A stretch of DNA of 46,180 bases from Lysobacterales bacterium (GCA_020442775.1 JAGRJL010000025.1:1-46180), one strand, 5' to 3'. Positions 3,914-46,078 are shown, numbered from the stretch's first letter. The notes: a model not told the origin generated them from the letters alone. Translations and numbers: made by a program.

Positions 3914-3999
3914 GGCGTCCTTGGTCTCCGGTTGGCGTTTGCCCGGCACGCTGTCGTGCAAGCGCCGGTTGCCGCTGATCATCGTTCGCTCAGGGCTGG

Positions 4000-4022
4000 C
4001 CGGGGTACCCCAAAACTTGGGT
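4000..4022 (-). promoter_or_regulatory. Dyad box copy 1, about 86 nt upstream of the tail-fibre-like gene
   Basis: The minus strand reads ACCCAAGTTTTGGGGTACCCCGG. It matches the copy at 6562-6584 at 21/23 positions and lies in non-coding DNA between 3913 and 4119. Confidence 0.55.
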
Positions 4023-4118
4023 GCCGTCGGTGGGTTCAAGCGCCGTCAGTGCGATGCGCTCCGGCTTCCGACTTGTTCAAGCCAGAAGGCTGAGATCACC
4101 GAGCGAACCGGCCTGGAC

Positions 4119-6500: not shown

Positions 6501-6561
6501 TGTTCGAATCCTCGCGGCGCCGATGCCAGCAGATGCGCAATGCTGGGTTAGGCGACGGAGT

Positions 6562-6613
6562 CCGCGGTACCCCAAAACTGGGGTGTCGAACCCCTGGATT
6601 GGGGTATCCGCGG
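6562..6613. promoter_or_regulatory. Head-to-head double copy of the dyad box in the divergent promoter region (CSLREA gene / response-regulator operon)
   Basis: CCGCGGTACCCCAAAACTGGGGT (6562-6584), spacer GTCGA, then ACCCCTGGATTGGGGTATCCGCGG (6590-6613). Read toward its own gene, each copy is ACCCC-N6-GGGGTA(T)CCGCGG. Confidence 0.55.
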
Positions 6614-9304: not shown

Positions 9305-12220
9305 TCAGGCGGCCTCCACCACCACCCGGTTCTTTCCCTGGGCCTTGCCGTGCAGCAGGCATTCGTCCGCGCGATTGATCGCCTGAATCGCATCTTCGCC
9401 GGGGCGTCGGCGTGACAGACCGATGGTGACGGTGATCTTGGGCAGCGGCCGGGTGGCAGCCAGCGGTTGGCTGGAAACGGCCTGGCGCACACGCTCGGCA
9501 ACTTCCAGTGCTTCCGCGTCGGTGGCGTCACGGACACAGAAGATGAACTCCTCGCCACCCCAGCGAGCGGCCAGATCCTCATCCTCACGGACCGCGCCGC
9601 GCAGACAGTCGGCCAGATGCTTGAGCACCAGATCGCCGACGTCGTGGCCGTAGATGTCGTTGAAGGACTTGAAATTATCGGCGTCGATGAGTGCGTAATG
9701 TTCTTCTTCGGGCGCCGGCGACTCGTCGATTCGGCTGAGGAATCCGCGGCGGTTGAGCAGCCCGGTGAGGTAGTCGGTGAAGGCAGCGACCGCGAGTGAG
9801 GCATTGGCCTCGCGCAGGGCTTCGGTCTGCCGTTCCACCTCACCCTGCAACATCCGGTTGCGCATCCGGATCCGCTGGGTGTGCCACATGGTCCAGAGCC
9901 AGCCAATGATCAGGACCGAGAATGCCCCGGCGATCTGGCCCCAGGCGGTTTGCCACCAGGCCGGCAGCACGTCGATGGGGAGCTGGGTCACTTCTCTGCC
10001 CCACAGGCCGTTGCCGCTGGCGGCCTGCAGTTCGAACAGGTAGTGACCGGGCTTGAGACCACTGAGCAGCGCCTCCGGGGTGGCGCTCACCCGACTCCAG
10101 TCCTTGCCGGAATCGCCCTGCAGACGCCAGCGGAAGCGGTTGGCGCTGGCGTGGCGGTAATCGGCGGCGATGTAGCGCAGACGCAGGCTGGCGACGCCGG
10201 AGGGAACCTGCAGGGCTTGCTCGGGGTTCAGCGCCAGCGGATTGCCGTCGGCCCAGGCGCCCACCACGGCTGCCGAGGGCGGTTTCAGCGACAGCGCAAC
10301 CTGCTCGGGCTCGAAACTGACAAAGCCACCCAGTCCACCGAAATAGATTCGCCCATCGGCCCCTTCGTCGCCGGAGCGCGCGTAGAACTCGTCCACCACC
10401 AGGCCGTCAGTGGTGCCGAACCGGGTGGTAGAGCGGTGGTCCAGATCGATCGCGATCACTCCACGGGTGGTGGCCGCCCACAGTCGTCCGCCGCCGAGGG
10501 CCAGACGCTGCACCGCGGTGTTGGGATAGTCCGGGATCAGCACCAGCTGCTCGTTGCTTTCCTGCTTGAGATCGAATGCCGTCAGCCCGAAGCTGGTCGC
10601 GGCCCAGATCAAATCCCCGGACAGCAGCAGGTCGTGCAGGGTGCCGTCGATGCCCAGCTTGTCGCGATCGAGTGCTTCGCGCTGACCATCGGCGCGAATG
10701 TGTACCGCGCCGGCCTCCCACAGTGCCAGCCAGATGCCGCCGTTGCCGTCCGCTTCGATGTCGGCAATCGAAGTGGCCGGGAGCTCGGCCGCAGCGCCGG
10801 CAGTCAGATGCGCGCGCAGCCCTTCCGGGCCATAGCGGAACAACCCGTCGGCCCAGGTTCCCACATCAATCTGACCGTCCTCACTTACCCTGAGCGCAGT
10901 GACCATCAGCTCCCGAACTTCGGCAAAGCGTGGGTCCGGCGCGAGGGTCCCGGTCGCCGGATCGAAGCGAAAAATGCCCATGCCGGTGCCCACCAGTACC
11001 CGGTCGCCTTCGCGACGCATGCGGATCACCGGATTGGCATCCGAACCGGAGATATGCTCGAAGCGATTCTCGCCGTCGATCTGGCGCAGGCGCCACAGTC
11101 CGCGGCGGGAACCAATCAGAATGTCGTCGCTGGCCAGTTCCAGCATCGCGTCAACCGTATCGAGTTCCGAGTCCAGACGATAGCCGTCAAATCCGGACAC
11201 CGTGGGCTGAACCTTGATTGCGCCCGCTTCGCGGGTGGCGAGCCAGCTGACGCCCCCCTCATCGACATGAAAGGCGCGAATGTTTCGTTCAGGGAACATC
11301 ACCGGATCGCTGCTGCCGAAGGGACCGATGATCCGTCCCTCGGGGCTGACCGAGCGGACCCCGGCGAGGGTGCCGATCAGGATCTCGCCGTCCGGGCCCT
11401 GCGCCAGGGTGTTCACCAGGGGCAGATCGCTGATCACCCGCTTCGGCACCTGCCCCGGCACCGCCCCGTAGACCGCGCCTTCGTCGCCCACCCACAGCTG
11501 CTCGGCGGCAAACACCAGCGCGCGCGGGTGATTGAGCCAGCCCTCGGCAGGCGCCGGCAACAGCCTGCCGCTGTGCACCTCGTGCACGCCTTCCGCATCG
11601 GCCAGCCAGAGTTGCCCCGAAGGCCCGGTAGACAACGACCAGACCCGGGAAAACGGGCGCCCATCGGGCCGGTTGACCGGCGTCGCCTCGCTGCCGCCCG
11701 GTTCCAGGCGAAACAGGCCTGCATCGGCCGAACCGACCCAGATGCTGCCGCTGGCATCCTCGGTCATGATCTGGATGTTTCTCGGTGCGGCGTTCGGATT
11801 CAGGTGTTCAAAGCTGCCGTCCAGGTCGGTGAGGCGATTCAGTCCGCCGCCCCAGGTGCCGATCAGCACCTCGCCCCGGGAGGTCGCCAGCACCTGCCCG
11901 GCAGCAGAATTGGTCAGCGACAGCGGATCCTGCGGCTGGTGGACGAAGAACTGGATCTGATAACCGTCGTAGACATTGGCGCCGCCGGCCGCGCTGCCCA
12001 GCCAGATCCGTCCCAGTTGATCCTGGCTGATGCTGAAGATGGTCGAATCGGAGAGTCCATCGGACAGGCTCAGGCTTTCCACATGAGTGGTGCTACGGGC
12101 GGTCCAGATCGGCGGCTCCGCCGATGCGGGCGAGAGCGTCGGCAGGCCGGCCACAAGCAGCCAGCAGAGCAGGGTCTGCAGCAATCGATTGGCTGATGTG
12201 GCGCTCACTCGCTCGCTCAC
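9305..12220 (-). CDS. Periplasmic two-component-regulator-propeller / Y_Y_Y sensor diguanylate cyclase (971 aa)
   Basis: GTG start at 12220 with a signal peptide (LLCWLLVAGLPTLSPASA). Repeated W.G...GL propeller blades, then a Y_Y_Y-like segment (LRLRYIAADYRH...GHYLFELQA), one TM helix and a GGDEF domain with an intact active site (ARWGGEEFIF). The I-site position reads EDED rather than RxxD. Confidence 0.9.
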   Translation of the reverse strand: MSERVSATSANRLLQTLLCWLLVAGLPTLSPASAEPPIWTARSTTHVESLSLSDGLSDSTIFSISQDQLGRIWLGSAAGGANVYDGYQIQFFVHQPQDPLSLTNSAAGQVLATSRGEVLIGTWGGGLNRLTDLDGSFEHLNPNAAPRNIQIMTEDASGSIWVGSADAGLFRLEPGGSEATPVNRPDGRPFSRVWSLSTGPSGQLWLADAEGVHEVHSGRLLPAPAEGWLNHPRALVFAAEQLWVGDEGAVYGAVPGQVPKRVISDLPLVNTLAQGPDGEILIGTLAGVRSVSPEGRIIGPFGSSDPVMFPERNIRAFHVDEGGVSWLATREAGAIKVQPTVSGFDGYRLDSELDTVDAMLELASDDILIGSRRGLWRLRQIDGENRFEHISGSDANPVIRMRREGDRVLVGTGMGIFRFDPATGTLAPDPRFAEVRELMVTALRVSEDGQIDVGTWADGLFRYGPEGLRAHLTAGAAAELPATSIADIEADGNGGIWLALWEAGAVHIRADGQREALDRDKLGIDGTLHDLLLSGDLIWAATSFGLTAFDLKQESNEQLVLIPDYPNTAVQRLALGGGRLWAATTRGVIAIDLDHRSTTRFGTTDGLVVDEFYARSGDEGADGRIYFGGLGGFVSFEPEQVALSLKPPSAAVVGAWADGNPLALNPEQALQVPSGVASLRLRYIAADYRHASANRFRWRLQGDSGKDWSRVSATPEALLSGLKPGHYLFELQAASGNGLWGREVTQLPIDVLPAWWQTAWGQIAGAFSVLIIGWLWTMWHTQRIRMRNRMLQGEVERQTEALREANASLAVAAFTDYLTGLLNRRGFLSRIDESPAPEEEHYALIDADNFKSFNDIYGHDVGDLVLKHLADCLRGAVREDEDLAARWGGEEFIFCVRDATDAEALEVAERVRQAVSSQPLAATRPLPKITVTIGLSRRRPGEDAIQAINRADECLLHGKAQGKNRVVVEAA

Positions 12221-27338: not shown

Positions 27339-30300
27339 CTATCCCGGCTGGTCGCTGCTGCGCTGCCAGTTGGCCAGACCGCCGCCGATGATTTGCTCGA
27401 CGCCATGACCAACCCCCGCGGAGAAGTCGCTGTGACGAGCATGCGACGCCGGGAGCAGGCGGTTCCAGCCGTCGCGGCCATGGGTCTTGACCCAGTAGAG
27501 CGCAACGTCGGCCAACTCCATGGCCATGGCCCAATCGGCGATATCGCTGCGGTCCGCCATCGCCGGATAAGGGCAAACCCCCATCGACACGCTCATCGCC
27601 ACGCGCTCGACTTCATTGGCCCGAAAGTCGGCCCGGCGCACCGCCTTGACCACTCTTTCGGCAAAGCGCTCTGGTGAGCCGACCGCCGATTCCGGAACCA
27701 GCAGCAGGAACTCCTCGCCGCCCCAGCGAAAGGCGTGCCCCTGGTCTCCCGCCAGCCGCAGCATCAGTTGCGAGAACTGCTTGAGGATGTCGTCGCCGAC
27801 CAGATGGCCGAGGCGGTCATTGATCGCCTTGAAATGGTCCAGATCCATCAGGAAAAGCCACAGGCGCTCCTGGTCGGTTTCGCCGAGCAGACTTCGGCGC
27901 CGCCAGTCGGCGAGGAACTTGGCCAGAAAGCGACGATTCTTCAGGCCGGTGAGGCCATCGGTGAAACTTTCCTGGGCCAGGGCCTGGTTGGCATTGCGCA
28001 ATCGCTCATTGGCCCGGCGCAGTTCCTCGGTGCGCTGGTCAACAACCCGTTGCAGGCGCTGCTCCCGACTCAGGCTGCGGATCCGCAGCAGGTAGGTCAA
28101 TCCAGCCAGGCTCGCCAGCGCCAGCACTCCTGCCAGCAGCCTGAACCACAGGGTCTCGCTGGGCCAGGCGGGGACCACAATACGGGTTGGACTGGCCTTG
28201 ACGAAGCGGTCGGTGGCGCCACCCTGGGCCGACAGCTCGAACTGATAATGCCCCGGCGCCAGATTGGTGTAGCGAACGCTGCGCTGATCAGTCAGTGATT
28301 GCCAGTCGCTTTCATAGCCGACCATGCGGTAGCGGAAACGGACCGATTCGGGGTCGCGAAAAGCCAACGCCGTGTACTCGATGGTAATGTCGCGCAGCCC
28401 CCGGGGCAGCTCCATAGACGCACTACCCGGCCACTGTTGGCCGCCCTCGGCGATGATTCGCTCGACCATGACGCGATCGGGTTGTTGCGGCGCCTCCACG
28501 TCTTCGGGGTCGACCCGCACCAGTCCATTGAGGCTGGGAAACCAGAGCTTCCCGCGCCAGTAAAGTCCGCGACTGGTGGCGCCCGCATTGCAGCAGCGCA
28601 GGCGCTGGCCGCCGCGGGCGTTGCGACCCTCATTGAGTACCGGTTCCGGACTCACCCGCCCACCGTTGAGCAGGAAGTTCTCGATCTGGGCGACGCTGAG
28701 CCTGTAGACCCCGCGAGGGCTGCTGACCCACAGGTAGCTGCTGTCGGCCTGCAGGTTGGCCACCGAGTTCCAGGGCAGTCCCTGCGCCCCGCCCAGGGTG
28801 CTGTAGCCGGTCAGGTCGCGAATGTAGATGCCGTCGTTGAAGGTGCCAATGACCAGCTTGCCACCGGCCATCGGCAGCAGTGCGGTGACCAGGGCGGCAT
28901 CCAGCCCAGAGCCGGTGCGGATGTGCTTGAACTGACCTTCGAGGCCGGCGTACAGGCCTTGTTCGGTGCCCACGTAGAGCTGTTCCTCGAACTGCACCAG
29001 ACTGCGCACCGCGGCGACTGACAGACCCTCGTTGCTCCCGTAGCGCTTGAATAGCCCGTTGCTCTGCAGATAGAGCCCGTCGCTGGTGCCGATCCAGTAG
29101 GTGCTCGGGTTGATCTCCAGGACCGCATTGATCTGCAGTCCGCTCAGCGGGCTCCACAAGGCCGGCTCGTCCAGCGTTGTCCCGTTCCACCGCGCCATAC
29201 CTGCTCGGGTGCCGATCCAGGCGCCGCCGGTGCTGGGGAAAAACAGGTTGTAAACGGCGCTGTTGCGCAGTGATTGCGTTGAAATCACCTCCACGGCCTG
29301 ATCTTGCGCATCCAGCTGCCAGACGCCGGTCGCGGTCCCCAGCCAGACCCGCTGATCGGGTCCGCGTGCCACGCTCCACACGAAGGGATCGCTCAGGCCA
29401 CGCTGCGGACCAATCCGCGCGGCCCAGCCATTCCACCAGCGTGACAGGCCGGTGGTGTAGCTGCCGATCCACAGGTCGCCCTGAGGGTCTTCGAAAATGC
29501 TTGCAATCCAGGCGCGCACGCTGTCGTGTTCGGTCAGCGCCCATTCCAGGCCGCGCTCAGCGTTGTAGCGCATCAGCCCGTCAATCAGGCCGATCCACAG
29601 ATTGCCGTCACGATCAGCGTGGAGCGCCTCGATGGATGCCTCCGCCAGCGGTGCAGCCCAGGCTGGTTGGCGCAATTTGCCATCGACGAATTCGAACAAG
29701 CCGCGGGAGCTGCCGACATACATCCGGCCTGCGCGGGAGGCGAGGTGGGTGAATCGCAATTGGCCCAAGTTACGATCTGCCGGAACCGCCGCAGCCATCC
29801 CCCCGCTGACTTCGTAGACTGCGCCATCGCTGCCGGCATAGATCCGGCTGCCGACGCTGAGCAGCGCATAGACCTTTGAATCTGCCAGGCCCAGGCGGGT
29901 CGCGTGACCCTTGCTGTAGCCGAACACCCCGCGGTCGGTGCCGATCAGTACGCTGCCGCCCGGTGCCATGGCAAATCCGTGGACTTGACCAACATTGGCG
30001 CCCAGCCCTTCAACCGGGTGCAGGCCCGCCTGGTCCAAAAGAGCGGCGCCGTGCGGTGTACCCAGCCAGAGGTCGCCCTGATCGTCGCGCCATACCCGAT
30101 CGGTGATCGAAGGCTGGTAGCCGTTCAGATCAGACGCGCCGTAGCTGGTGAAGCGGAGTCCGTCGAAGCGTGCCAGGCCGCCCTGGGTACTCATCCACAG
30201 ATATCCCATCCGGTCATGGGCGATGGAGGTCACCGAGACCTGCGGCAGACCATCGGGAAAGCCCCAATGGTCGATCACGTATTCATCCGGGGCGCGCTGG

Positions 30301-30497
30301 AGGTCGAGTGCCCAGCAGTGACTGGCCCAGGCCGTCAGCGCTAGCGCGAGCGGCCGCACCCAGCGGGCGAGGGAGGTCCGCGAGGTCAAACGGGACTTCA
30401 ACACGGTATTGCCCAAAACATATAGCCTTCGGTCCGGCGTGAAGAATGATCCTGTGCGCTGTTTTGCCTTGGCACCACGACTTCGCCCCACGCGCAT
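27339..30497 (-). CDS. Periplasmic propeller / Y_Y_Y sensor diguanylate cyclase, paralogue of 9305..12220
   Basis: Same architecture as 9305..12220: signal peptide (LALALTAWASHCWA), propeller repeats, Y_Y_Y (IEYTALAFRDPESVRFRYRMVGYESDW...GHYQFELSA), TM helix, coiled coil, GGDEF (FRWGGEEFLLLV). First ATG is 30497. GTG 30404 would give a more typical signal-peptide length, and the track start 30545 is TTG. Confidence 0.88.
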   Translation of the reverse strand: MRVGRSRGAKAKQRTGSFFTPDRRLYVLGNTVLKSRLTSRTSLARWVRPLALALTAWASHCWALDLQRAPDEYVIDHWGFPDGLPQVSVTSIAHDRMGYLWMSTQGGLARFDGLRFTSYGASDLNGYQPSITDRVWRDDQGDLWLGTPHGAALLDQAGLHPVEGLGANVGQVHGFAMAPGGSVLIGTDRGVFGYSKGHATRLGLADSKVYALLSVGSRIYAGSDGAVYEVSGGMAAAVPADRNLGQLRFTHLASRAGRMYVGSSRGLFEFVDGKLRQPAWAAPLAEASIEALHADRDGNLWIGLIDGLMRYNAERGLEWALTEHDSVRAWIASIFEDPQGDLWIGSYTTGLSRWWNGWAARIGPQRGLSDPFVWSVARGPDQRVWLGTATGVWQLDAQDQAVEVISTQSLRNSAVYNLFFPSTGGAWIGTRAGMARWNGTTLDEPALWSPLSGLQINAVLEINPSTYWIGTSDGLYLQSNGLFKRYGSNEGLSVAAVRSLVQFEEQLYVGTEQGLYAGLEGQFKHIRTGSGLDAALVTALLPMAGGKLVIGTFNDGIYIRDLTGYSTLGGAQGLPWNSVANLQADSSYLWVSSPRGVYRLSVAQIENFLLNGGRVSPEPVLNEGRNARGGQRLRCCNAGATSRGLYWRGKLWFPSLNGLVRVDPEDVEAPQQPDRVMVERIIAEGGQQWPGSASMELPRGLRDITIEYTALAFRDPESVRFRYRMVGYESDWQSLTDQRSVRYTNLAPGHYQFELSAQGGATDRFVKASPTRIVVPAWPSETLWFRLLAGVLALASLAGLTYLLRIRSLSREQRLQRVVDQRTEELRRANERLRNANQALAQESFTDGLTGLKNRRFLAKFLADWRRRSLLGETDQERLWLFLMDLDHFKAINDRLGHLVGDDILKQFSQLMLRLAGDQGHAFRWGGEEFLLLVPESAVGSPERFAERVVKAVRRADFRANEVERVAMSVSMGVCPYPAMADRSDIADWAMAMELADVALYWVKTHGRDGWNRLLPASHARHSDFSAGVGHGVEQIIGGGLANWQRSSDQPG

Positions 30498-30580
30498 GGG
30501 AGATTCGCAGGCCTTGCATGGTATCGTCGCGCCCCCATCACACAAGCGTTGCTGATCACCGCAGCGCCTGGAACAGATCC

Positions 30581-38318: not shown

Positions 38319-41300
38319 ATGAACGGGGAAATGTCCGCCGATATCCACCCGATACCGGCGGCAAGGGTTGAGCGCGTCAGTCTGCTGGAATCCGAAGATG
38401 CGCTGATCGTGGTGGACACCCATAGCCGCATCCATGCGATCAGCGACGGGCTGTGCCAACGGCTGGGGCTCACCGTCGCCACCTTTCAGGGCAAGTCCCT
38501 GGACCAGATCGAGCGCCAGTGGCGCAAGGTCGCGATACTCAGCCGGATCGATTCCGGCAGTGAATCGGTGCAGGGCGGTTTCCTCTGGCCCAGCGAGCTT
38601 TCGGCGTTTCGCGTATTGCCCCGCATTGATGTACTGCTGCAGGGCAGCACGCCGGGCTTGCCGCAGACCCTGACTTGCGATCACGCAGGGCAGATCAAGG
38701 GCGCATCCGCGAGCCTGCTCAGCCGACCGGGCGGGGGGCTGCTGCTGGGCAGGCTGAAGATCTTCGACCTGCTGCCGTCGGCGACAAAGAAGTTAGGGAA
38801 CCTGATTCGGGATAGTGCCCAGCGTCAGGGAGTGCCCAGCACGATGGGTCTGCAAGTGCCAAACATGGGCTTGTTCAGGCTGCTGTCGCTGGCATATGAC
38901 GAATGGGTGGAGCTGAGCTTCCTTCGGCCGCAGTCCGATGTGCTCTCGCTGAGCGAACTGGTCCGCCATCCAGTGTTCTCTCGCACCATCGACATGATGG
39001 AGGACGCCGTCTCGGTACACGATCTGGACGGTGCCACGGTGGAGATCAACCAGGCTGGCTTCGCGCTACTCGATGCCGAACCCTCTGCGGCGGGTGTGCC
39101 GCAGCTGGTCGAAGCGATCCATCCCGAGGATCGTTCGGTGTTCGCAGGCGCGCTGGCAGCGGGATTGCGCGGTGCGACCACGCGCGCCACATTGCGCCTG
39201 CTGGTAGGCGTGGATGATCGAGAAGCTCGCGTGCGAATTCTGGTCCGGCCGATCAGGCGGGAAGACGGAGAACTCGATCGTTTGCTGATTCAGACCCGCA
39301 CCTCCGCCTTTCCAGCGCCTCCCGCGACCGGCACGGCGGCGCGCGTTGGGGTGCCGCTGGAGCAGCCGGCGTCGCTGACCGACCCGAATGAGACCGGGGC
39401 CAGGGTGGATGCTGCAGCAACCAGCGCGGGGGTTGCCAGGCTGGTTCCCCGCCCATCCCCGCCGGCGGGCGCACAGGGCTACGCGTGGTCCTGCGAGCTG
39501 GAAGATGCGCGGCTGGTCAAGCTGCAACTGCGTGGCGAGGGTTTCGAACAGCTGCATGGCTTTCCTTTTTGCGAACTGGTTCTGGCCGGCGGGGAGCGAA
39601 TCGCGATGCCGCATGGCGAAGCGGAGAGAGTGCGCTCGGTGATCCTCGAGGCGGCGCGCCGCGGCGGGGGCTTCGAGCTGGAGTTCTCCCGCTACGACGG
39701 CCACAGCGCGCTGCGCTGGACCCTGGTGCGCGGCACCGTGTATCGCGATCGAGAGGGCCGCTCCCTGGTGGAGGCGGTCACAATGGATTTGGAGCCTCGC
39801 CGCCTGGCACAAGTGGCGAATGATCAGCACCACCGGTTCCTGCTCGACCTGCTCGAGCTGGTCCCTGATGCCGGAGGCTGCCAGCTGCGCTATGACTGGC
39901 AGGCCAGGGTGGAAATCCTGTACGCCAACGATCGCCTGCGCGAGCTTTGTCCCAGCCTGCGCTCGTCGGGAGGAAGTGCGGCGGAGCTGTTGTTTCCCAA
40001 TCTCGAGGCGCCCACCGTAGCCGCAATCGATCAGCGGCTCCGCCAATCTGCTGAGACCGGCGAACTGGTTGATCTGGAGTTCAACATGGGAGCGGGCGAA
40101 GGCGCCCGCTGGTTCAGCCTGCGCGCCTGCCGAGCGGATGCCGCGAACGGGCTGGGCGTGGTTTGCCTGCTTATGGAGATCACCCGGCAGCGGCGCGCAG
40201 TACAGACTTTGCTGGAGCGGGAACAGCTGCTGCAGCGCATCGGTAACAACATGCCCAACGGTTTCGTTTTTCAAATGATCCAGCAGGCCGACAAGAGCGC
40301 GCATCTAAGCTATGTCTCCGCCGGTTTTGAGCGTTTGACCGGCATCAGCAGACGGGATGTGGCCATCAATCTGGCGCCCCTGTTGCAGCTGATGTCTGCC
40401 ACCGATGCGATGAATTTCGAAGCACGCATGAGCGAGTCGGCGCGGCGAATGGTGCTGCTGGAGTGCGAATTCGGTTTGAACAGCGAGCGACGGGAGGCCT
40501 TCAGGCACCTGATGCTCAGCGCCCGGCCACGACCCTTCGACGGCGGTGCCACGCTGTGGGAGGGCGTCGCCACAGACATCACCCAGCGACACAACACTGG
40601 AGAGGAGAAGCGTCGACTGATACTGCGCCTGGAGCACCAGATCACCGAGCTGGAGAGCGTCAACTTTGCACTCTCGCATGATCTCAAGGGTGCGGTTCTG
40701 GGGCTTCGCGGCCAGCTTGATCTCGCGTTGGATCTGTCAGAGATGGGGGAACATGAAGGTGTCCATGAGCGGCTGAACCGCAGCATCGGGGTCACAGAGC
40801 GGATGTGGCAACTGCTCGCTCAGATGCTGGAGTTGTCCCGACTGGAGCGGGCAGAGCTGGTCGTGCGCCGCTTGACGATGCTCGAGCTGGTGCAGCCGAC
40901 GTTGGACCTGCTGAGCGGCCTGTCGGAAAAGTCGGGGGTCAGAGTCGAGCTTGAGACCCCCGAGCTGGAGCTGGATTGTGACGTACTGCGGCTGCAGTCG
41001 GTGTTGGTCAATCTGATTGGAAACGCGCTGAAATTCTCGCCGCCGGGTAGCGAGTCGGTGCTGATTCGCGGTACCGAGGGCATTGGCGAGGTGCTGATAT
41101 CGATTACCGATCACGGAATCGGCATCGCTCCCCAACATCTGGAAAAGGTCTTCGGGCTATTCGAGCGTGTCGATCAGGCTGTGGAAGGATCAGGGGTTGG
41201 CCTGGCGCTGGTCCGTCGGGTGATCCAGATGCACGGCGGCAGGGTATGGGCGACCTCGCCCGGCGTGGGTCAGGGTACGACCATCTGGCTGTCGCTGCCG

Positions 41301-41339
41301 AGAATGTCAGTGGAAACCGGGATGTTGCGCAGTGGCTGA
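38319..41339 (+). CDS. Cytoplasmic multi-PAS sensor histidine kinase (1006 aa)
   Basis: No TM segments. Several PAS-like repeats (e.g. MMEDAVSVHDLDGATVEINQAGFALL; ...VFQMIQQADKSAHLSYVSAGFERLTGISRRDV), H-box FALSHDLKGAVLGL, N-box NLIGNALKFSPPG, ITDHGIGIAPQHLEKVFGLFER, GSGVGLALVRRVIQMHGGRVW. Confidence 0.9.
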   Translation: MNGEMSADIHPIPAARVERVSLLESEDALIVVDTHSRIHAISDGLCQRLGLTVATFQGKSLDQIERQWRKVAILSRIDSGSESVQGGFLWPSELSAFRVLPRIDVLLQGSTPGLPQTLTCDHAGQIKGASASLLSRPGGGLLLGRLKIFDLLPSATKKLGNLIRDSAQRQGVPSTMGLQVPNMGLFRLLSLAYDEWVELSFLRPQSDVLSLSELVRHPVFSRTIDMMEDAVSVHDLDGATVEINQAGFALLDAEPSAAGVPQLVEAIHPEDRSVFAGALAAGLRGATTRATLRLLVGVDDREARVRILVRPIRREDGELDRLLIQTRTSAFPAPPATGTAARVGVPLEQPASLTDPNETGARVDAAATSAGVARLVPRPSPPAGAQGYAWSCELEDARLVKLQLRGEGFEQLHGFPFCELVLAGGERIAMPHGEAERVRSVILEAARRGGGFELEFSRYDGHSALRWTLVRGTVYRDREGRSLVEAVTMDLEPRRLAQVANDQHHRFLLDLLELVPDAGGCQLRYDWQARVEILYANDRLRELCPSLRSSGGSAAELLFPNLEAPTVAAIDQRLRQSAETGELVDLEFNMGAGEGARWFSLRACRADAANGLGVVCLLMEITRQRRAVQTLLEREQLLQRIGNNMPNGFVFQMIQQADKSAHLSYVSAGFERLTGISRRDVAINLAPLLQLMSATDAMNFEARMSESARRMVLLECEFGLNSERREAFRHLMLSARPRPFDGGATLWEGVATDITQRHNTGEEKRRLILRLEHQITELESVNFALSHDLKGAVLGLRGQLDLALDLSEMGEHEGVHERLNRSIGVTERMWQLLAQMLELSRLERAELVVRRLTMLELVQPTLDLLSGLSEKSGVRVELETPELELDCDVLRLQSVLVNLIGNALKFSPPGSESVLIRGTEGIGEVLISITDHGIGIAPQHLEKVFGLFERVDQAVEGSGVGLALVRRVIQMHGGRVWATSPGVGQGTTIWLSLPRMSVETGMLRSG

Positions 41340-41436: not shown

Positions 41437-41880
41437 ATGCAGGCACGGCCCAAACTGGCAGCCTCCATCCTGGCGATTGAGGATGACCCCAACCAGCTCG
41501 AGCTACTCGAGTTGGCAATCGGAGCATTGCCTGTGGAGGTTCCGGTCACCTGTGCTGACAACGGTATGGAGGCCCTGCATCTGATTCAGATGGCGGCGAT
41601 GGAGCGCTTCGAGGGGCAAGTGGCGATGGTGCTGCTGGACCTACGTTTGCCGCGAATGCACGGGATGGATGTGCTCACCCGGGCCAATGAGCTGGGGCTC
41701 ACCGGCAAGGCGCCGTTCATCGTGTTCACATCATCGGACTCCAGTGCCGAGCGTGATCAGGCGCTGGCACTGGGAGCGCGCGACTATCTGGTCAAACCCC
41801 TGGGTTTCAAGCCGCTCAGGCTGCTGATCTCCAGCCTCTATGAGCGCTGGATCGCCTCCAATCCGGCGTTGTCCGGCTAG
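41437..41880 (+). CDS. Single-domain CheY-like response regulator (147 aa)
   Basis: ILAIEDDPNQLE...MVLLDLRLPRMHGMDVL...FIVFTSS...GARDYLVKPL, with no output domain. Confidence 0.88.
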   Translation: MQARPKLAASILAIEDDPNQLELLELAIGALPVEVPVTCADNGMEALHLIQMAAMERFEGQVAMVLLDLRLPRMHGMDVLTRANELGLTGKAPFIVFTSSDSSAERDQALALGARDYLVKPLGFKPLRLLISSLYERWIASNPALSG

Positions 41881-42326
41881 CCGGCACCGCCTGCTTCCAG
41901 GGCGAAGGCACTCCGCACGCTGGCATTGAGCCGTTCACCAATGGCATCGGCACATTCGTGCAGATTCCAAAGCAGCTTGCCCAGCGTGGTGTCGCTGCCG
42001 CTGATCGCGGTCAGCAGCAGTCGCTGGCGGCGATTGGGGATATCCATCACCAGAATGTTTCCCTGGCCCGCCTCGATCACGATGTTCTTGCAGGTGTTGA
42101 CCCGAGTTTCCGCACACAAGGCTTCGGCCAGCGCCAGCTGCGAACTGGCCATCGCCGAGAGCTTGCTGGCGCTGATGGTCGGCGGCAGCTGGGCGGCGAT
42201 GTCAAAGCCGTCGATGGTGGAGACCAGTGCGCCTTCGATCTCCGGAGTGTTTTCGATCAACACCGCCAACTGCTTCAGGCACATCATGCGCTCGGTGTTG
42301 CCGAAGGGGTCGACCTCTTGATTCAT
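41877..42326 (-). CDS. Roadblock/LC7 (MglB-like) domain protein (149 aa)
   Basis: LKQLAVLIENTPEIEGALVSTIDGFDIAAQL......LSAMASSQLALAEAL......NIVIEAGQGNILVMDI...LLLTAISGSDTTLGKLLWNL follows the Roadblock/LC7 pattern. The ATG overlaps the GTPase stop (ATGA at 42323-42326). Confidence 0.8.
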   Translation of the reverse strand: MNQEVDPFGNTERMMCLKQLAVLIENTPEIEGALVSTIDGFDIAAQLPPTISASKLSAMASSQLALAEALCAETRVNTCKNIVIEAGQGNILVMDIPNRRQRLLLTAISGSDTTLGKLLWNLHECADAIGERLNASVRSAFALEAGGAG

Positions 42327-42895
42327 CGGGCGATCTCCATCTGGGTGGGCGAGCGCTCCATCTGGATGTCCTGTTCAATCTGGTGAAAGAGCACGTCCAG
42401 CAGCAGCAGTACGTCGTCGCGGCGACGCACGTCGACCGAGAACATGGGGACCTGCAGGCCCATCGAGTCGGCGATCTCGTGGAACTCATGCAATCCTGGC
42501 TGTGGGTGGGTCTCGGTGTGGCCAACCCCGATCACCGCTCGATAGCCGCGGACCACATCCGAGAATGCATTCAGATAGTGGCGCACGTCGGCAATCGGGT
42601 CCGGCCGAGAGTTGTCGATCAGGATCACCACGCCGAGCGCCCCGGCGCCGAGGATCTTCCACATGAAGTCGAAGCGTTCCTGTCCTGGTGTTCCGTACAG
42701 GCGCAGCTTGTCGCCGTTGCCGAGGGTGACTTCGCCATAATCCATGGCGGCGGTCGTGGTTGCCTTGGCGTGGGTTTGCGTATCGTTATTCTGAACTTCG
42801 GTGGAAACCGGTGGAATCTCGCTGATCGCGGCGATGGCGGTTGTCTTGCCCGCGCCCATCGTCCCCGCAAAGATCAACTTGTGTTCAGAAGCCAC
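42323..42895 (-). CDS. Small Ras-like GTPase of the CvnD/MglA-related 'ATP/GTP-binding protein' group (COG2229), 190 aa
   Basis: GTG start at 42895. P-loop FAGTMGAGKTT, switch region TTTAAMDYGEVTL, LYGTPGQERF (G3), VVILIDNS. The NKxD position reads GVGHTE, as I recall for this subgroup. It abuts the upstream gene with no intergenic nucleotide. Confidence 0.85.
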   Translation of the reverse strand: MASEHKLIFAGTMGAGKTTAIAAISEIPPVSTEVQNNDTQTHAKATTTAAMDYGEVTLGNGDKLRLYGTPGQERFDFMWKILGAGALGVVILIDNSRPDPIADVRHYLNAFSDVVRGYRAVIGVGHTETHPQPGLHEFHEIADSMGLQVPMFSVDVRRRDDVLLLLDVLFHQIEQDIQMERSPTQMEIAR

Positions 42896-43936
42896 CTAAG
42901 CCGCCCGAGCTTCCATTCCCAGCGCAGAGCGCATGATCCGCACCAGCCCCGACCAACGACTGGGCTGCACCTTGACCGATTGATAGGTCTCGGTGCCGGC
43001 ATCGTTGAAAGTTTGGCAATCCAGCAGGCTGCAATAGGCGCAGGCATTGAGGAACGCACTGACTTCCGCCATCGGCTGCCCGGACAGCTGAACGATTTCC
43101 TCAACCGAATGCGCGCCGCGGGTGAGCAGAGCGGCGAAGCCGAAATGCGAGCGACGAGCCCCCAGCCGGCCGAAATCGGGCCAGCGCAGCAGCTTGATAC
43201 GGGATGCTGTCGCCACCGACTCCTGAAGCTTGCCTTCCGGGTAGTTCATGCCCAGATTCCACAGCAACTCGTCGATCGGTCGTGGAGCCAGTTCCTTGCG
43301 CAGACCGTTGCCCACGATTGCCCCTACTCGACGCAGCGCCGGGGCCTTCTGCGACCGCACCAGATCCGCCAAACGCTGCTCGGTCAATTCGGTGGATGCA
43401 GCAAAACTGCGCTCGGGCTCGAAAACGTAGATGCACTTGCCATCCAGATTCACTTGCCAAACCGCCTGTTCGTCGCTGCGCCGGCGCGCCAACGCCATCA
43501 GCAACTCGGTCAGGGTCTGGTGGTTGTGCAGATCAGCCGGAACATCGCGGACATCGGCAGCTGGACCTTCGCTCGGCTGAGCTTGCGCTGCTGTGTGGGC
43601 AATCGGGTGTTCGATCTCATCAGCGGCGGTATCCAGGACCCCAATGACTTCGCTGGCGCGCAGCGGGAAGTGGATGAAATGGGTCAGCTGCCCGCGGCTT
43701 TGACCCGCCTTCAAGACCTCGACACAAACCGGACGTCCGGTGTTATGAAACTGCTTGTGGGCAATCCGGGTCAGCGCAGCATCCGGGTCGCACAGCACCA
43801 GATCAGCCTGGAAACTCTCGGTGTACTCCCACTTTTCACGAGTGCTTCCCTCGATCAGATGGAGTACGGAGCGGACGATGGTCTCATCGTGGGCGGAGAG
43901 GCCGACAGTCGTGACGGTATAGGCGGATTTGTTCAT
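42896..43936 (-). CDS. Uncharacterised 346-aa protein, first gene of the GTPase/Roadblock operon (pseudo-receiver-like N-terminus; possible DUF4388/PATAN-like middle)
   Basis: Long ORF that stands against the spurious GC-driven antisense ORF. N-terminus TVTTVGLSAHDETIVRSVLHLIEG...ADLVLCDPD resembles a receiver strand-helix pattern without an obvious acidic pocket. The middle LTELLMALARRRSDEQAVWQVNLDGKCIYVFEPE resembles the DUF4388 core (L.DLLQ.L...G.L.V...G.IYF..G). The family call is tentative. Confidence 0.7.
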   Translation of the reverse strand: MNKSAYTVTTVGLSAHDETIVRSVLHLIEGSTREKWEYTESFQADLVLCDPDAALTRIAHKQFHNTGRPVCVEVLKAGQSRGQLTHFIHFPLRASEVIGVLDTAADEIEHPIAHTAAQAQPSEGPAADVRDVPADLHNHQTLTELLMALARRRSDEQAVWQVNLDGKCIYVFEPERSFAASTELTEQRLADLVRSQKAPALRRVGAIVGNGLRKELAPRPIDELLWNLGMNYPEGKLQESVATASRIKLLRWPDFGRLGARRSHFGFAALLTRGAHSVEEIVQLSGQPMAEVSAFLNACAYCSLLDCQTFNDAGTETYQSVKVQPSRWSGLVRIMRSALGMEARAA

Positions 43937-43950
43937 GGCTGCAGTCTACA

Positions 43951-43996
43951 ACAGAAAATGAATAGGTGTATTTAATTATTAAGATTGGTTTGTAAC
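43951..43996 (-). promoter_or_regulatory. AT-rich promoter-like island upstream of the 346-aa/GTPase/Roadblock operon
   Basis: The minus strand reads TTACAAACCAATCTTAATAATTAAATACACCTATTCATTTTCTGT, 15-60 nt upstream of ATG 43936. It contains TTACAA and TAAATA-type hexamers, but the spacing is not ideal. Confidence 0.35.
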
Positions 43997-44165
43997 GGAT
44001 CGTTTGGGGTCATGTGCCGCATCTTGCTCGCGCGGCTGAGCGCGGGTGTCGCCGCATTTGGCAAGACGGCTATCAGCGTCACGGCTCCAAGTGTTGGACA
44101 GCAGGGAGACCCACGCTGCTGCCGAAAGTCACCCGCAGCGGGGGGCATTTGCCGAATCAGAAGAT

Positions 44166-45143
44166 TCAGGTCGTCGCCGGCCCGAGTGGTACCAGCAGCC
44201 CCTTGGCCAGAATGTCCTCGACCAGAGGATCGGTATGGGCGCCAGCTGCAGCGCCGGTGAGCGGGGTCGGCTCTGTGGCCGCCTCGCCGAAAACCTGCAG
44301 CGCGGCGCGGACCGAGTTGGCGTTGAGCTGCGCGACCTGCTCCGGCTGTTGATAGCCACCAGCCACCACAAACACGATCGGAACGGTCAGTTCCCTGGCC
44401 ATGCCGAACACCCTCAGATCTCGCCGGAACATCTGATCGGCGCTGATTCTGGCCAGGCTCTTGGGGTCGTTTTCATGGCAGTCCGCGCCGGACTGGTAAA
44501 GAATCAAGTCCGGTCGATGTTCCCGGATCAGGTCGTCTACCTCGTCCAGCGCCGCATCGTATTGCGCAGCGGCATTGCGTCCGCGAATGTGAAAGGTCCA
44601 GGAGCGCGGACCGCCGAGGCAGCCGAAACGGGTGCCAAAGATCGATGCCTGATAGAGATTGGGCAGCTGGGCGATGAAACTCTCGGTGCCGTTGCCGCCG
44701 TGTTCATCGCAGTCGATCACAAAGACCCGCAGGTCAGGCCGAGCGTGTGCGACCAGTGCCAGGCCGTTCAACGCACAGTAGGCCGACCCGCGTTCGGCGA
44801 CGGCGTGATGAAAGCCGCAGGCCAGATTCAGGCAGACCCCGCTGCTCTGCGCCCGTTCAACCGCGGCGAGCTGGCCGGACAGCATCGCGTAGGTGGCATC
44901 GCGCACGGCAGTGGACCAGGGTATCCCCAGCGTCGAGGCCAACGGTTCAATGCCCTGATCGAAATGGGTCAGATAGCGCTCGCTATGAAGTCCGCTCAGC
45001 GCACTGGTATCGAAAGGGGGTGGCTCGATCATCTCAACGAGACCGAGCTTCTGCATGAGGTCGGCAGCGACCGACAGGCGCCAGAACCTTGGGGTTTCCG
45101 GCGGCGCGTAGACGGATGAGAAATAGGTCGGCAGAACCTTCAC
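44166..45143 (-). CDS. Histone-deacetylase-family (arginase/deacetylase superfamily) Zn-dependent amidohydrolase, 325 aa
   Basis: LNLACGFHHA (catalytic His pair), VFVIDCDEHGGNGT (D-x-H zinc ligands), YQSGADCHENDP (third zinc ligand Asp), VVAGGY (catalytic Tyr). The GTG start overlaps the upstream stop (GTGA at 45140-45143). Confidence 0.85.
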   Translation of the reverse strand: MKVLPTYFSSVYAPPETPRFWRLSVAADLMQKLGLVEMIEPPPFDTSALSGLHSERYLTHFDQGIEPLASTLGIPWSTAVRDATYAMLSGQLAAVERAQSSGVCLNLACGFHHAVAERGSAYCALNGLALVAHARPDLRVFVIDCDEHGGNGTESFIAQLPNLYQASIFGTRFGCLGGPRSWTFHIRGRNAAAQYDAALDEVDDLIREHRPDLILYQSGADCHENDPKSLARISADQMFRRDLRVFGMARELTVPIVFVVAGGYQQPEQVAQLNANSVRAALQVFGEAATEPTPLTGAAAGAHTDPLVEDILAKGLLVPLGPATT

Positions 45144-46078
45144 GCGGCACTCCGCAGCACGCGCGCCGAGGAGTTGCGCAGATCATCCAGAGTGGTGGTC
45201 AGCGGAGACACCATGTTCAGCCGGACCTGCGCATCCATTTGCGCAGAGAATGCCCGGCGCCGAATCTCCGGTGGGACGGCCAGGGTGGTCAACCTCAGAA
45301 AGCGTGCCGCCTGGATATCGGCAAGCGAGAGAATCAGGCCGGATTCGCTGGCGGCGGCGGCATTCGCCGACTCGGCGTGTTCCAGCGCAAACAGCCCACC
45401 CGGCGGTATCGTGACCTGATTGACGGTTGCCGGTGAGAGCAGCATCGCCGAGTGTGACTCGCCGAGATTCATCTTTTCGATCAGCAGTGGCTTGCCGGTT
45501 TCATCCAGTATCAGGTTGACGCTGCCGCCCCGGCGGATCTTTCCGTGGGCGATCTCCAGAAAGAACTCCTCGGCCTGGGAACAGCTGCCAATCTCGGGCT
45601 TGACCGGCATCGGCGCCAGTACCGGCAGCGCCTGCCGGGTGCCGTCAATGATGTCCACGATCATCGAGAACAGCAGGCGGGCCTCGAAACTGTGTTCGTG
45701 CTTGGCCAGCTCGGAGAGCTTCTGATCGAGTCCGATCAGGAGCGACAGACCGTCCGATTCCAGTCCGCGCAGCAGTTCTGCCGGCGCTTGCGCAGCCCGG
45801 CGCCAGCCAGCCTCCCAGCCATGCTGAATCAGTCGCCTGGCCAGCTGCTCGATCTCGCTGATCATTGATGACCAGTCGGCAAACAGCGAAAGGTCCGTGG
45901 CGACATCGGGGGATCGGGGGCAATTGATAAACTCGGCCAGGAATCGGGTGGCCTGGGTGTAGCCGCAGCCCCGGCGTTCGGTCTGGTGGCTGGGGTCTTC
46001 TTCCAGCATCGGCACCAGCTTGGCCGAAAACGACAGTCCCGCCTGGGCAAAGCTACGCCGCAGTTCATGCATCGCCAT
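45140..46078 (-). CDS. Uncharacterised 312-aa protein translationally coupled to the HDAC-family gene
   Basis: ATG 46078 (MAMHELRRSF...). Continuous ORF with no recognisable motif, predicted helical N-terminal half and beta-rich C-terminal half (SVNLILDETGKPLLIEKMNLGESHSAMLLSPATVNQVTIPPGGLFALEH). Confidence 0.65.
   Translation of the reverse strand: MAMHELRRSFAQAGLSFSAKLVPMLEEDPSHQTERRGCGYTQATRFLAEFINCPRSPDVATDLSLFADWSSMISEIEQLARRLIQHGWEAGWRRAAQAPAELLRGLESDGLSLLIGLDQKLSELAKHEHSFEARLLFSMIVDIIDGTRQALPVLAPMPVKPEIGSCSQAEEFFLEIAHGKIRRGGSVNLILDETGKPLLIEKMNLGESHSAMLLSPATVNQVTIPPGGLFALEHAESANAAAASESGLILSLADIQAARFLRLTTLAVPPEIRRRAFSAQMDAQVRLNMVSPLTTTLDDLRNSSARVLRSAA

Follow-up and report, generated by a model that had tools for sequence, protein, structure and literature searches.

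In Myxococcus xanthus, MglA belongs to Group 1 of the MglA-family GTPases, MglB is the GTPase-activating protein (GAP) of MglA, and the receiver-domain protein RomR is part of the guanine nucleotide exchange factor (GEF) of MglA. A study by Wuichet and Søgaard-Andersen (2014, Genome Biol Evol 7:57; PMC4316618) divided the prokaryotic MglA-family GTPases into five groups, of which Group 2 is the actinobacterial conservon. Groups 2 to 5 carry a threonine in place of the G2 arginine finger and the sequence GTPGQ in G3, and a different catalytic mechanism was predicted for them (PMC4316618). In the mycobacterial version of the conservon, the GTPase MfpB has the Roadblock protein MfpD as its GAP and the DUF742 protein MfpC as its GEF (PMC11343762). 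Here we describe a stretch of 46,180 nucleotides from a Lysobacterales bacterium (GCA_020442775.1 JAGRJL010000025.1:1-46180; the whole stretch is called the window), in which three adjacent minus-strand genes encode an unannotated protein, referred to as X, a small GTPase and a Roadblock/LC7 protein of the MglB type. The locus is very probably a Group 3 MglA system with a single MglB, and its products would form a GTP/GDP switch with a Roadblock GAP and X as a partner.

Group 3 was described as "almost exclusively" beta- and gammaproteobacterial, with hosts that include Neisseria, Stenotrophomonas, Xanthomonas and Acidithiobacillus, and with an operon of the order DUF>MglA>MglB that contains one or two MglB genes (PMC4316618). 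The first protein, named for a domain of unknown function (DUF), has no Pfam model; Phyre2 predicted a receiver-like fold for its N-terminal region and a winged-helix-like one for its C-terminal region, with a variable linker between them. In the Group 3 GTPases G4 deviates from [NT]KxD, often without the Lys, and G5 is of the D-A-R type, while the coupled MglB carries an Asp-Gly pair (PMC4316618). Table S2 of the study lists "DUF>MglA>MglB>" for Stenotrophomonas, Acinetobacter, Nitrosococcus, Citrobacter rodentium, Variovorax and others. A preliminary description of the window had called the trio a conservon-like module with a non-canonical first component, in an arrangement uncharacterised in gammaproteobacteria; the arrangement has in fact been listed as Group 3 since 2014, with the same receiver and winged-helix prediction for its first protein. 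Group 3 is known from bioinformatics, and the locus in the window adds nothing new in kind. A search of the literature by locus tag and organism for experimental work on Group 3 systems found only a study of mglB in Snodgrassella, and none that addressed the DUF partner by biochemistry or genetics. Group 3 modules occur in many beta- and gammaproteobacteria, including the pathogens Neisseria, Stenotrophomonas, Xanthomonas and Acinetobacter. What the present analysis yields is a domain map of X, a case that the winged helix of X is unlikely to read DNA, and a recurrent PAS-LOV gene at the front of the operon in relatives, which together provide testable hypotheses for the input to Group 3 switches.

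The genes for X, the GTPase and the Roadblock protein form one translationally coupled operon (Table 1). The TAG stop codon of X (42898-42896) abuts the GTG start codon of the GTPase gene (42895-42893) with a gap of 0 nt, and the ATGA at 42326-42323 is common to the TGA stop codon of the GTPase gene and the ATG start codon of the Roadblock gene, so that these two overlap by 4 nt. Both junctions lie exactly where they had been placed before. The GTG start of the GTPase is required because the next ATG falls within the P-loop and because the homologues begin at the same position.

The GTPase matches the Pfam family ATP_bind_1 (E 1.7e-12) and the Roadblock protein matches Robl_LC7 (E 2.8e-9), which agrees with the earlier proposal of an MglA/CvnD-type GTPase and an MglB/CvnB-type Roadblock protein in one operon. 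The GTPase motifs quoted at that time (GAGKTT, TPGQ and GVGHTE) are all present, as part of GTMGAGKTT (G1), LYGTPGQ (G3) and VIGVGHTE (G4). Conservation of the motifs was computed over 121 relatives. G1, the G2 motif K44-A-T-T47-T48 and the G3 motif Y-G-T-P-G-Q72, which includes the catalytic Gln, are invariant in this set. G4 is G125-H-T-E128, where the family consensus is G-R-x-[E/D], and G5 is S-V-D155-V-R157-x-R, the residue between D155 and R157 being V in 116 and A in 4 of the relatives. Judged by this motif conservation, the GTPase is predicted to bind and hydrolyse GTP. It is highly conserved, being 60-75% identical to proteins of Rudaea, Dokdonella and Dyella, and has more than 6,000 matches at E<=1e-10. 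An unrooted neighbour-joining tree of proteobacterial GTPases and conservon CvnD proteins places the window GTPase with those of Rudaea and Dyella, then Neisseria, then Ralstonia, and apart from seven plasmid-borne CvnD proteins, to which it is 30-35% identical. The Neisseria GTPase has TKMD (G4) and DAR (G5) in the same alignment columns as the window GTPase. Two features of the seven CvnD proteins are absent in the window GTPase, namely N-x-F-[D/A/P] in the G4 columns of the alignment and an insert of 10-12 residues between G1 and G2.

The motif S36-T-x-D39-G40-F41 of the Roadblock protein, including the D-G pair, is invariant among seven Roadblock partners, and the family profile matches solved Roadblock structures including Rv3364c/MfpD and CvnB5. 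The locus therefore shows the Group 3 gene order, TT in G2, GTPGQ in G3, a G4 without Lys, DVR in G5, the D-G pair of the Roadblock protein and the domain layout of the DUF protein. Its host is a Xanthomonadales metagenome-assembled genome (MAG), as several proteins encoded in the window have identical counterparts among NCBI entries of "MAG: Xanthomonadales bacterium"; it lies among the beta- and gammaproteobacteria and within the order that also holds the Group 3 hosts Stenotrophomonas and Xanthomonas. The window GTPase, with 190 residues, is also similar in length to the listed Group 3 GTPases (172-188). The differences are small: its G4 reads GHTE, the usual sequence in close relatives being GRx[E/D] and that in Neisseria TKMD.

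The Group 3 locus of N. gonorrhoeae was found by tblastn. An alignment of the X-family profile with the DUF protein of this locus, whose frameshifted sequence was stitched by hand beforehand, gave an hhalign probability of 94% (E 1.1e-7) over 283 columns, and the signatures WxxG, RWPDF and FLNACA are recognisable in it. By this profile alignment the homology of X to the Group 3 DUF extends over its full length. In the gonococcal locus itself (strain 2022NG-0076, NZ_CP119140.1 1382757-1389202) the DUF and GTPase genes are broken by frameshifts and stop codons, which could reflect either pseudogenisation or assembly error. The record NZ_CP119140.1, with a length of 2.17 Mb, is filed as a plasmid and is evidently a chromosome.

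X was modelled by AlphaFold2 with family alignments, and fold matches were searched with Foldseek. The mean predicted local distance difference test (pLDDT) was 82.8 for the full-length protein and 89.4 for residues 130-346, with a predicted template modelling score (pTM) of 0.83 for the latter. The separate model of residues 130-346 was needed to probe the C-terminal part, as Foldseek on the full-length model returned only the receiver (REC) domain. The first 110 residues match the REC domains of NtrX, PhoP, DesR and YycF (probability 0.94-1.0, E 0.005-0.1), which bears out an earlier suggestion of a pseudo-receiver-like N-terminus. This part of X is a pseudo-receiver in which the acidic pocket of phosphorylatable REC domains is not conserved. 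GLS replaces the DD pair after beta1, and the phospho-acceptor position D50 after beta3 varies (D/E/G/A/N/S; 12 of 21 members have D or E there). Most of the family lacks the Lys of the K-P motif, and neither X nor any relative tested (21 X-family members) has a Response_reg match in Pfam. P91 of the K-P motif is invariant. A disordered linker (residues 113-128) leads to a compact alpha/beta middle domain for which Foldseek found no fold match in the PDB. The preliminary description had tentatively seen a DUF4388/PATAN-like segment in X. This candidate was rejected, as PF14332 matches 0 of the 21 X-family members even at E<=5.

The C-terminal domain of X weakly resembles winged helices of the ArsR/SmtB type, such as BigR, NolR and CzrA (Foldseek E 0.5-2, probability 0.4-0.8), and weak winged-helix matches in Pfam recur for it. 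The signatures of the X family (LLWxxG, RWPDFG and FLNACA) all lie in this domain. In the family alignment the invariant columns are W226, G229, R251-F255 and A298. The sequence predicted to form the recognition helix (xxVSAFLNACAxCxLL) is hydrophobic, and its charge is neutral to acidic with a mean net value of -0.5; the wing is acidic (-1.5) and varies in length, and the domain as a whole has a net charge of about 0. Within residues 296-301 of X (window positions 43033-43050), C299 of FLNAC is nearly invariant in the predicted recognition helix, and about half of the members have a further cysteine three residues on (C302), which gives a CxxC-like pair within the hydrophobic helix. This pair may be structural or may serve in thiol sensing. 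A basic amphipathic helix with the invariant R336 closes the protein.

No Pfam, NCBIfam or PADLOC match was found for X, and a sequence search against the PDB returned nothing. Pfam checks that had been proposed for the trio thus succeeded for the Roadblock protein and the GTPase, but returned neither DUF4388 nor any other family for X. X belongs to a large family, annotated "hypothetical", for which neither Pfam nor NCBIfam has a model. When 1.84 billion representatives were searched with a profile, 3511 cluster representatives matched at E<=1e-3, and 1784 did so at E<=1e-10. A word-indexed search gave only 32 matches; the notion that X is a rare orphan family was rejected, since this low number is an artefact caused by the fast divergence of the protein. 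The product of the first gene of the Rudaea operon shares 31% identity with X (E 3e-52), and that of Dyella aligns with X with an hhalign probability of 100%. Divergence to about 30% identity, between genomes whose GTPases are highly conserved, explains the few relatives in the word search.

Eight loci with a homologue of the GTPase, reached through either X or the GTPase, were looked up, a check of synteny that had been proposed earlier, and the same gene order was found at all of them. At seven of the eight (the close relative L001, L003, L040, Rudaea L026-28, L042, Dyella L029/30 and L041) the GTPase gene is separated by 0-5 nt from an X homologue on its upstream side and shares 4 nt with a Robl_LC7 gene on its downstream side, and the upstream protein is unannotated and has 316-346 residues. 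L043 has the same layout with an X of 353 residues; its downstream gene has no precomputed Pfam match and was called a Roadblock gene by an in-house profile and alignment only, being 45% identical to the window Roadblock. L007 also carries the trio. The genes that flank the trio are different and unrelated among these loci. The X-GTPase-Roadblock arrangement is not due to chance, because it is kept at GTPase loci in different flanking contexts.

At four loci of two lineages (L003:7217-7993, L007:5217-5990 and L040:2223-2999 in one, L043:2118-2954 in the other) a gene for a protein of 258-278 residues with two PAS domains is located directly upstream of X on the same strand, either ending 7 nt before the start of X or overlapping it. 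In its second PAS domain this protein carries GRNC[K/R]FLQ, the flavin-cysteine signature of LOV domains, and the PAS-LOV proteins of the two lineages are 43% identical. This suggests a blue-light input into some Group 3 GTPase modules. In the window a histone deacetylase (HDAC)-like gene stands in place of the PAS-LOV gene. No report of an association between PAS-LOV proteins and an X-GTPase-Roadblock operon was found in the literature searched. Experiments on the system would best begin with the LOV-linked relatives, because their stimulus, blue light, is known.

In Rudaea, Dyella and related contigs (L027:6054-6413, L029:6041-6400, L041:5055-5414, L042:5064-5423 and L043:5084-5443), the gene after the Roadblock gene encodes a strongly conserved protein of 119 residues (mean column identity 84%). 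Unlike the Rudaea and Dyella operons, the window has no such gene after its single MglB gene, and a convergent response regulator gene stands there. The 119-residue protein has no Pfam match, and it was rejected as a Roadblock homologue, as no relationship was detectable (hhalign 0.3%). Downstream of the trio in L043 (5952-7481), a protein of 509 residues has a weak Arf-family match and may be a second GTPase. On the megaplasmid of Ralstonia solanacearum (AP024102.1, 1707153-1714569) a related GTPase with 41% identity is encoded next to hrpG. The gene order there is a 124-residue unknown protein, the GTPase, a 436-residue ABC-ATPase fused to a PTP/DSP phosphatase, a 135-residue unknown protein and a Roadblock protein. 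This locus was rejected as an instance of the same module, as its architecture is different and lacks an X homologue.

The way in which the three proteins may work together can be sketched from the described systems. The GTPase would cycle between GTP and GDP, by analogy with CvnD9 and MfpB, which are active although their G4 is deviant. The Roadblock dimer would act on it as GAP, the role that MglB has towards MglA and MfpD towards MfpB. X would be a third partner that sets or reads the nucleotide state as an exchange factor, an adaptor or an effector. The first two of these roles seem the most likely, with X docking on the GTPase through its uncharged winged helix as a functional analogue of MfpC, and with the pseudo-receiver as a docking site for upstream sensor input, such as the PAS/LOV proteins of some relatives. 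A fuller version of this scheme can be put forward tentatively, and on balance it is rather unlikely to hold in all its parts: X would be a single-polypeptide exchange factor or adaptor whose Cys-bearing winged helix grips the GTPase and whose pseudo-receiver docks sensors (PAS-LOV proteins in some Xanthomonadales-like relatives), and the orphan X homologues described below would form a branch of the same fold that works without the GTPase and possibly senses thiols or persulfides. If true, the docking of PAS-LOV proteins by X would constitute a natural pathway from blue light to a small GTPase in bacteria.

Several observations weigh against the assignment of the locus as a Group 3 switch with X as a dedicated partner. 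The G4 motif GHTE differs from NKxD at three of four positions and has H where 113 of the 121 relatives have R, so guanine specificity is not assured. In a metagenome sample of 69 X homologues, which is motif-biased (retrieved via FLNACA) and has flanks of at most about 4 kb on each side, 62 have neither a GTPase nor a Roadblock gene within these flanks and 7 have both. Over all X homologues retrieved via FLNACA, the metagenome sample included (L008-L025 and L049-L123, for example L021:3788-6870 and L024:3244-6393), most are without a GTPase or Roadblock gene within about 4-6 kb. It follows that a neighbouring GTPase is not a strict requirement of the X fold. In Burkholderiales MAGs the orphans stand behind a gene for a SelU-like rhodanese/P-loop protein and one for an MBL-rhodanese, separated by 15-23 nt, and ahead of MoxR-DUF58-TgpA genes. 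In view of the orphans and of the conserved Cys in FLNAC, the X fold may have a sensing function that is independent of the GTPase. An alignment of the X profile with seven DUF742 sequences gave an hhalign probability of only 9% (P 0.004), confined to the generic helix-turn-helix (HTH) region, and the Foldseek matches of the winged helix are weak. The GAP, GEF and GTP-binding steps proposed for Group 3 are all drawn by analogy.

Orphan X homologues lie in operons after MBL-rhodanese genes, much as the repressor BigR is said to do, which fits a reading of X as a DNA-binding transcription factor gated by the GTPase. On this account X is the output of a pathway from a small GTPase to transcription, which is the reading put forward in PMC4316618, and the response-regulator-like layout of a receiver-like N-terminus with a winged-helix C-terminus speaks for it, as does the fact that the nearest folds of the C-terminal domain are DNA-binding ArsR/SmtB repressors. 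However, the E values of those fold matches are only 0.5-2, and the hydrophobic recognition helix, the acidic and length-variable wing and the near-neutral charge of the domain are unusual for a winged helix that reads DNA. The absence of charge argues against DNA binding, and the invariant residues (W226, RWPDFG and FLNACA) resemble a protein interface or core rather than base contacts. Given the charge pattern of the modelled winged helix, classical DNA binding by X is less likely, and the reading of X as a transcription factor is possible but somewhat doubtful. A different doubt concerns the GTPase, which in this lineage might be a P-loop protein with a changed base specificity (for example for ATP) or a nucleotide-independent scaffold. 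The absence of Lys from G4, with Glu for Asp and His where most relatives have Arg, would fit this, and the best Pfam match is named "conserved hypothetical ATP binding protein". It is nevertheless improbable. G1, G2, G3 with its catalytic Gln and the D-V-R-x-R of G5 are invariant across the relatives, and CvnD9, which also has a deviant G4, was reported to be an active GTPase (PMC4316618). The TKMD that the Neisseria Group 3 protein keeps at the aligned position argues that the site is homologous to the guanine-binding G4.

The conservon (CvnA-B-C-D, or MfpE-D-C-B in mycobacteria) shares with the locus the ATP_bind_1 family of the GTPase, a non-canonical G4, a D-x-R type G5 and a Roadblock partner (a demonstrated GAP in mycobacteria), which here resembles CvnB5 and MfpD; with the identity to plasmid-borne CvnD given above, these likenesses would suit a degenerate or horizontally acquired conservon in which CvnA and CvnC have been replaced. 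The conservon also has a third, HTH-type partner, the demonstrated GEF DUF742/MfpC (PMC11343762). In the window, by contrast, neither a membrane kinase-like CvnA nor a DUF742 protein was found by Pfam, as the preliminary description had noted, and the nearest kinase is the convergent cytoplasmic PAS kinase. X is three times larger than the DUF742 protein and has two extra domains, and the Pfam DUF742 model matches neither X nor any of 21 relatives. The gene order is X-GTPase-Roadblock rather than A-B-C-D, the host phylum is different, and the G4 is GHTE rather than NxFD, without the insert between G1 and G2. As the neighbour-joining tree also sets all seven CvnD proteins apart from the proteobacterial clade, membership in the conservons was rejected, and a replaced conservon is very improbable. 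Group 1 provides a comparison for the output of the switch. Myxococcus MglA/MglB with RomR-RomX has a Ras-like GTPase, a Roadblock GAP and a G3 of the T-x-P-G-Q type, as in the window, and the characterised Group 1 systems all govern polarity or type IV pili. In the Group 3 host Snodgrassella, mglB genes were reported to be beneficial for gut colonisation, and mutation of an orphan mglB altered motility at the colony edge (PMC11112851). A polarity or motility switch acting on type IV pili, twitching or biofilm would be compatible with a Group 3 system, but it is an unlikely output here. No pilus, gliding or chemosensory genes flank any trio inspected, and those Group 2 systems that have been characterised act on metabolism or antibiotic resistance rather than on motility. 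Group 1 also differs in having an intrinsic Arg finger in G2, a canonical NKxD and partners that are encoded elsewhere, whereas the window GTPase has TT in G2, in line with the other catalytic mechanism predicted for Groups 2-5. RomR and RomX are unrelated in sequence to X and gave no match in the X searches. PATAN (DUF4388) proteins are reported in the neighbourhoods of Group 5 MglA/MglB genes (Makarova 2006, as cited in PMC4316618). These loci resemble the window in having a receiver-related accessory protein beside the MglA/MglB genes, but differ in the PATAN domain itself, which no X-family member matched.

Table 1. Features of the X-GTPase-Roadblock operon and its surroundings in the window.
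Feature	Position	Strand	Remarks
X	42896-43936	-	346 aa, ATG start; predicted Group 3 DUF partner
X residues 1-110, pseudo-receiver	43607-43936	-	(beta-alpha)5 fold in the model
X residues 134-215, compact alpha/beta middle domain	43292-43537	-	fold class unmatched; pLDDT about 88-97 in the C-terminal model
X residues 221-320, winged-helix-like domain	42977-43276	-	three helices and a hairpin in the model
GTPase	42323-42895	-	190 aa, GTG start; MglA family, probable Group 3
Roadblock/LC7 protein (MglB type)	41877-42326	-	149 aa, ATG start; presumed GAP
A/T-rich stretch, possible promoter region	43951-43996	-	inside the 229-nt gap upstream of X; inferred from position
Response regulator, stand-alone (context only)	41437-41880	+	Pfam Response_reg E 4e-16
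Multi-PAS histidine kinase, cytoplasmic (context only)	38319-41339	+	PAS/PAS_3/PAS_4, HisKA and HATPase_c matches

The A/T-rich island upstream of X had been described as promoter-like. The island is real, with a GC content of 0.41 in 43900-43999 against about 0.6 around it, but a scan of it for the sigma-70 consensus gave no promoter match, so the label "promoter-like" rests on composition and position only. The 3' ends of the convergent response regulator and Roadblock genes overlap by 4 nt (41877-41880), which leaves no room for a terminator between them. A link of the GTPase to the PAS kinase and to the surrounding two-component and cyclic di-GMP (c-di-GMP) network had also been proposed. 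This neighbourhood is common only to the close relative L001; as L001 is 68-84% identical, this synteny is uninformative and does not sustain the proposal. The LOV signature was not found in the PAS kinase. The HDAC-like gene, the response regulator and the PAS kinase are specific to the lineage of the window as neighbours of the trio. PADLOC gave no match for the trio or its two upstream neighbours, and an anti-phage defence system was rejected on these grounds.

Outside the operon the window is chromosomal; besides ValRS it encodes many signalling proteins, among them GGDEF/EAL proteins and kinases, and the region is dense in genes for c-di-GMP signalling. Just upstream of the trio (44166-46078, minus strand), a gene for a protein of 312 residues without a family match overlaps by 4 nt with a gene of the histone-deacetylase family (325 residues), and this pair is kept in L001. 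The stretches 2045-6575, 9305-12220 and 27339-30545 belong to a group of genes for a protein with an endosialidase-chaperone (Peptidase_S74) domain and a Calx-beta protein, both at the left end of the window, and for two large Reg_prop/Y_Y_Y-GGDEF proteins and a GGDEF-EAL protein.

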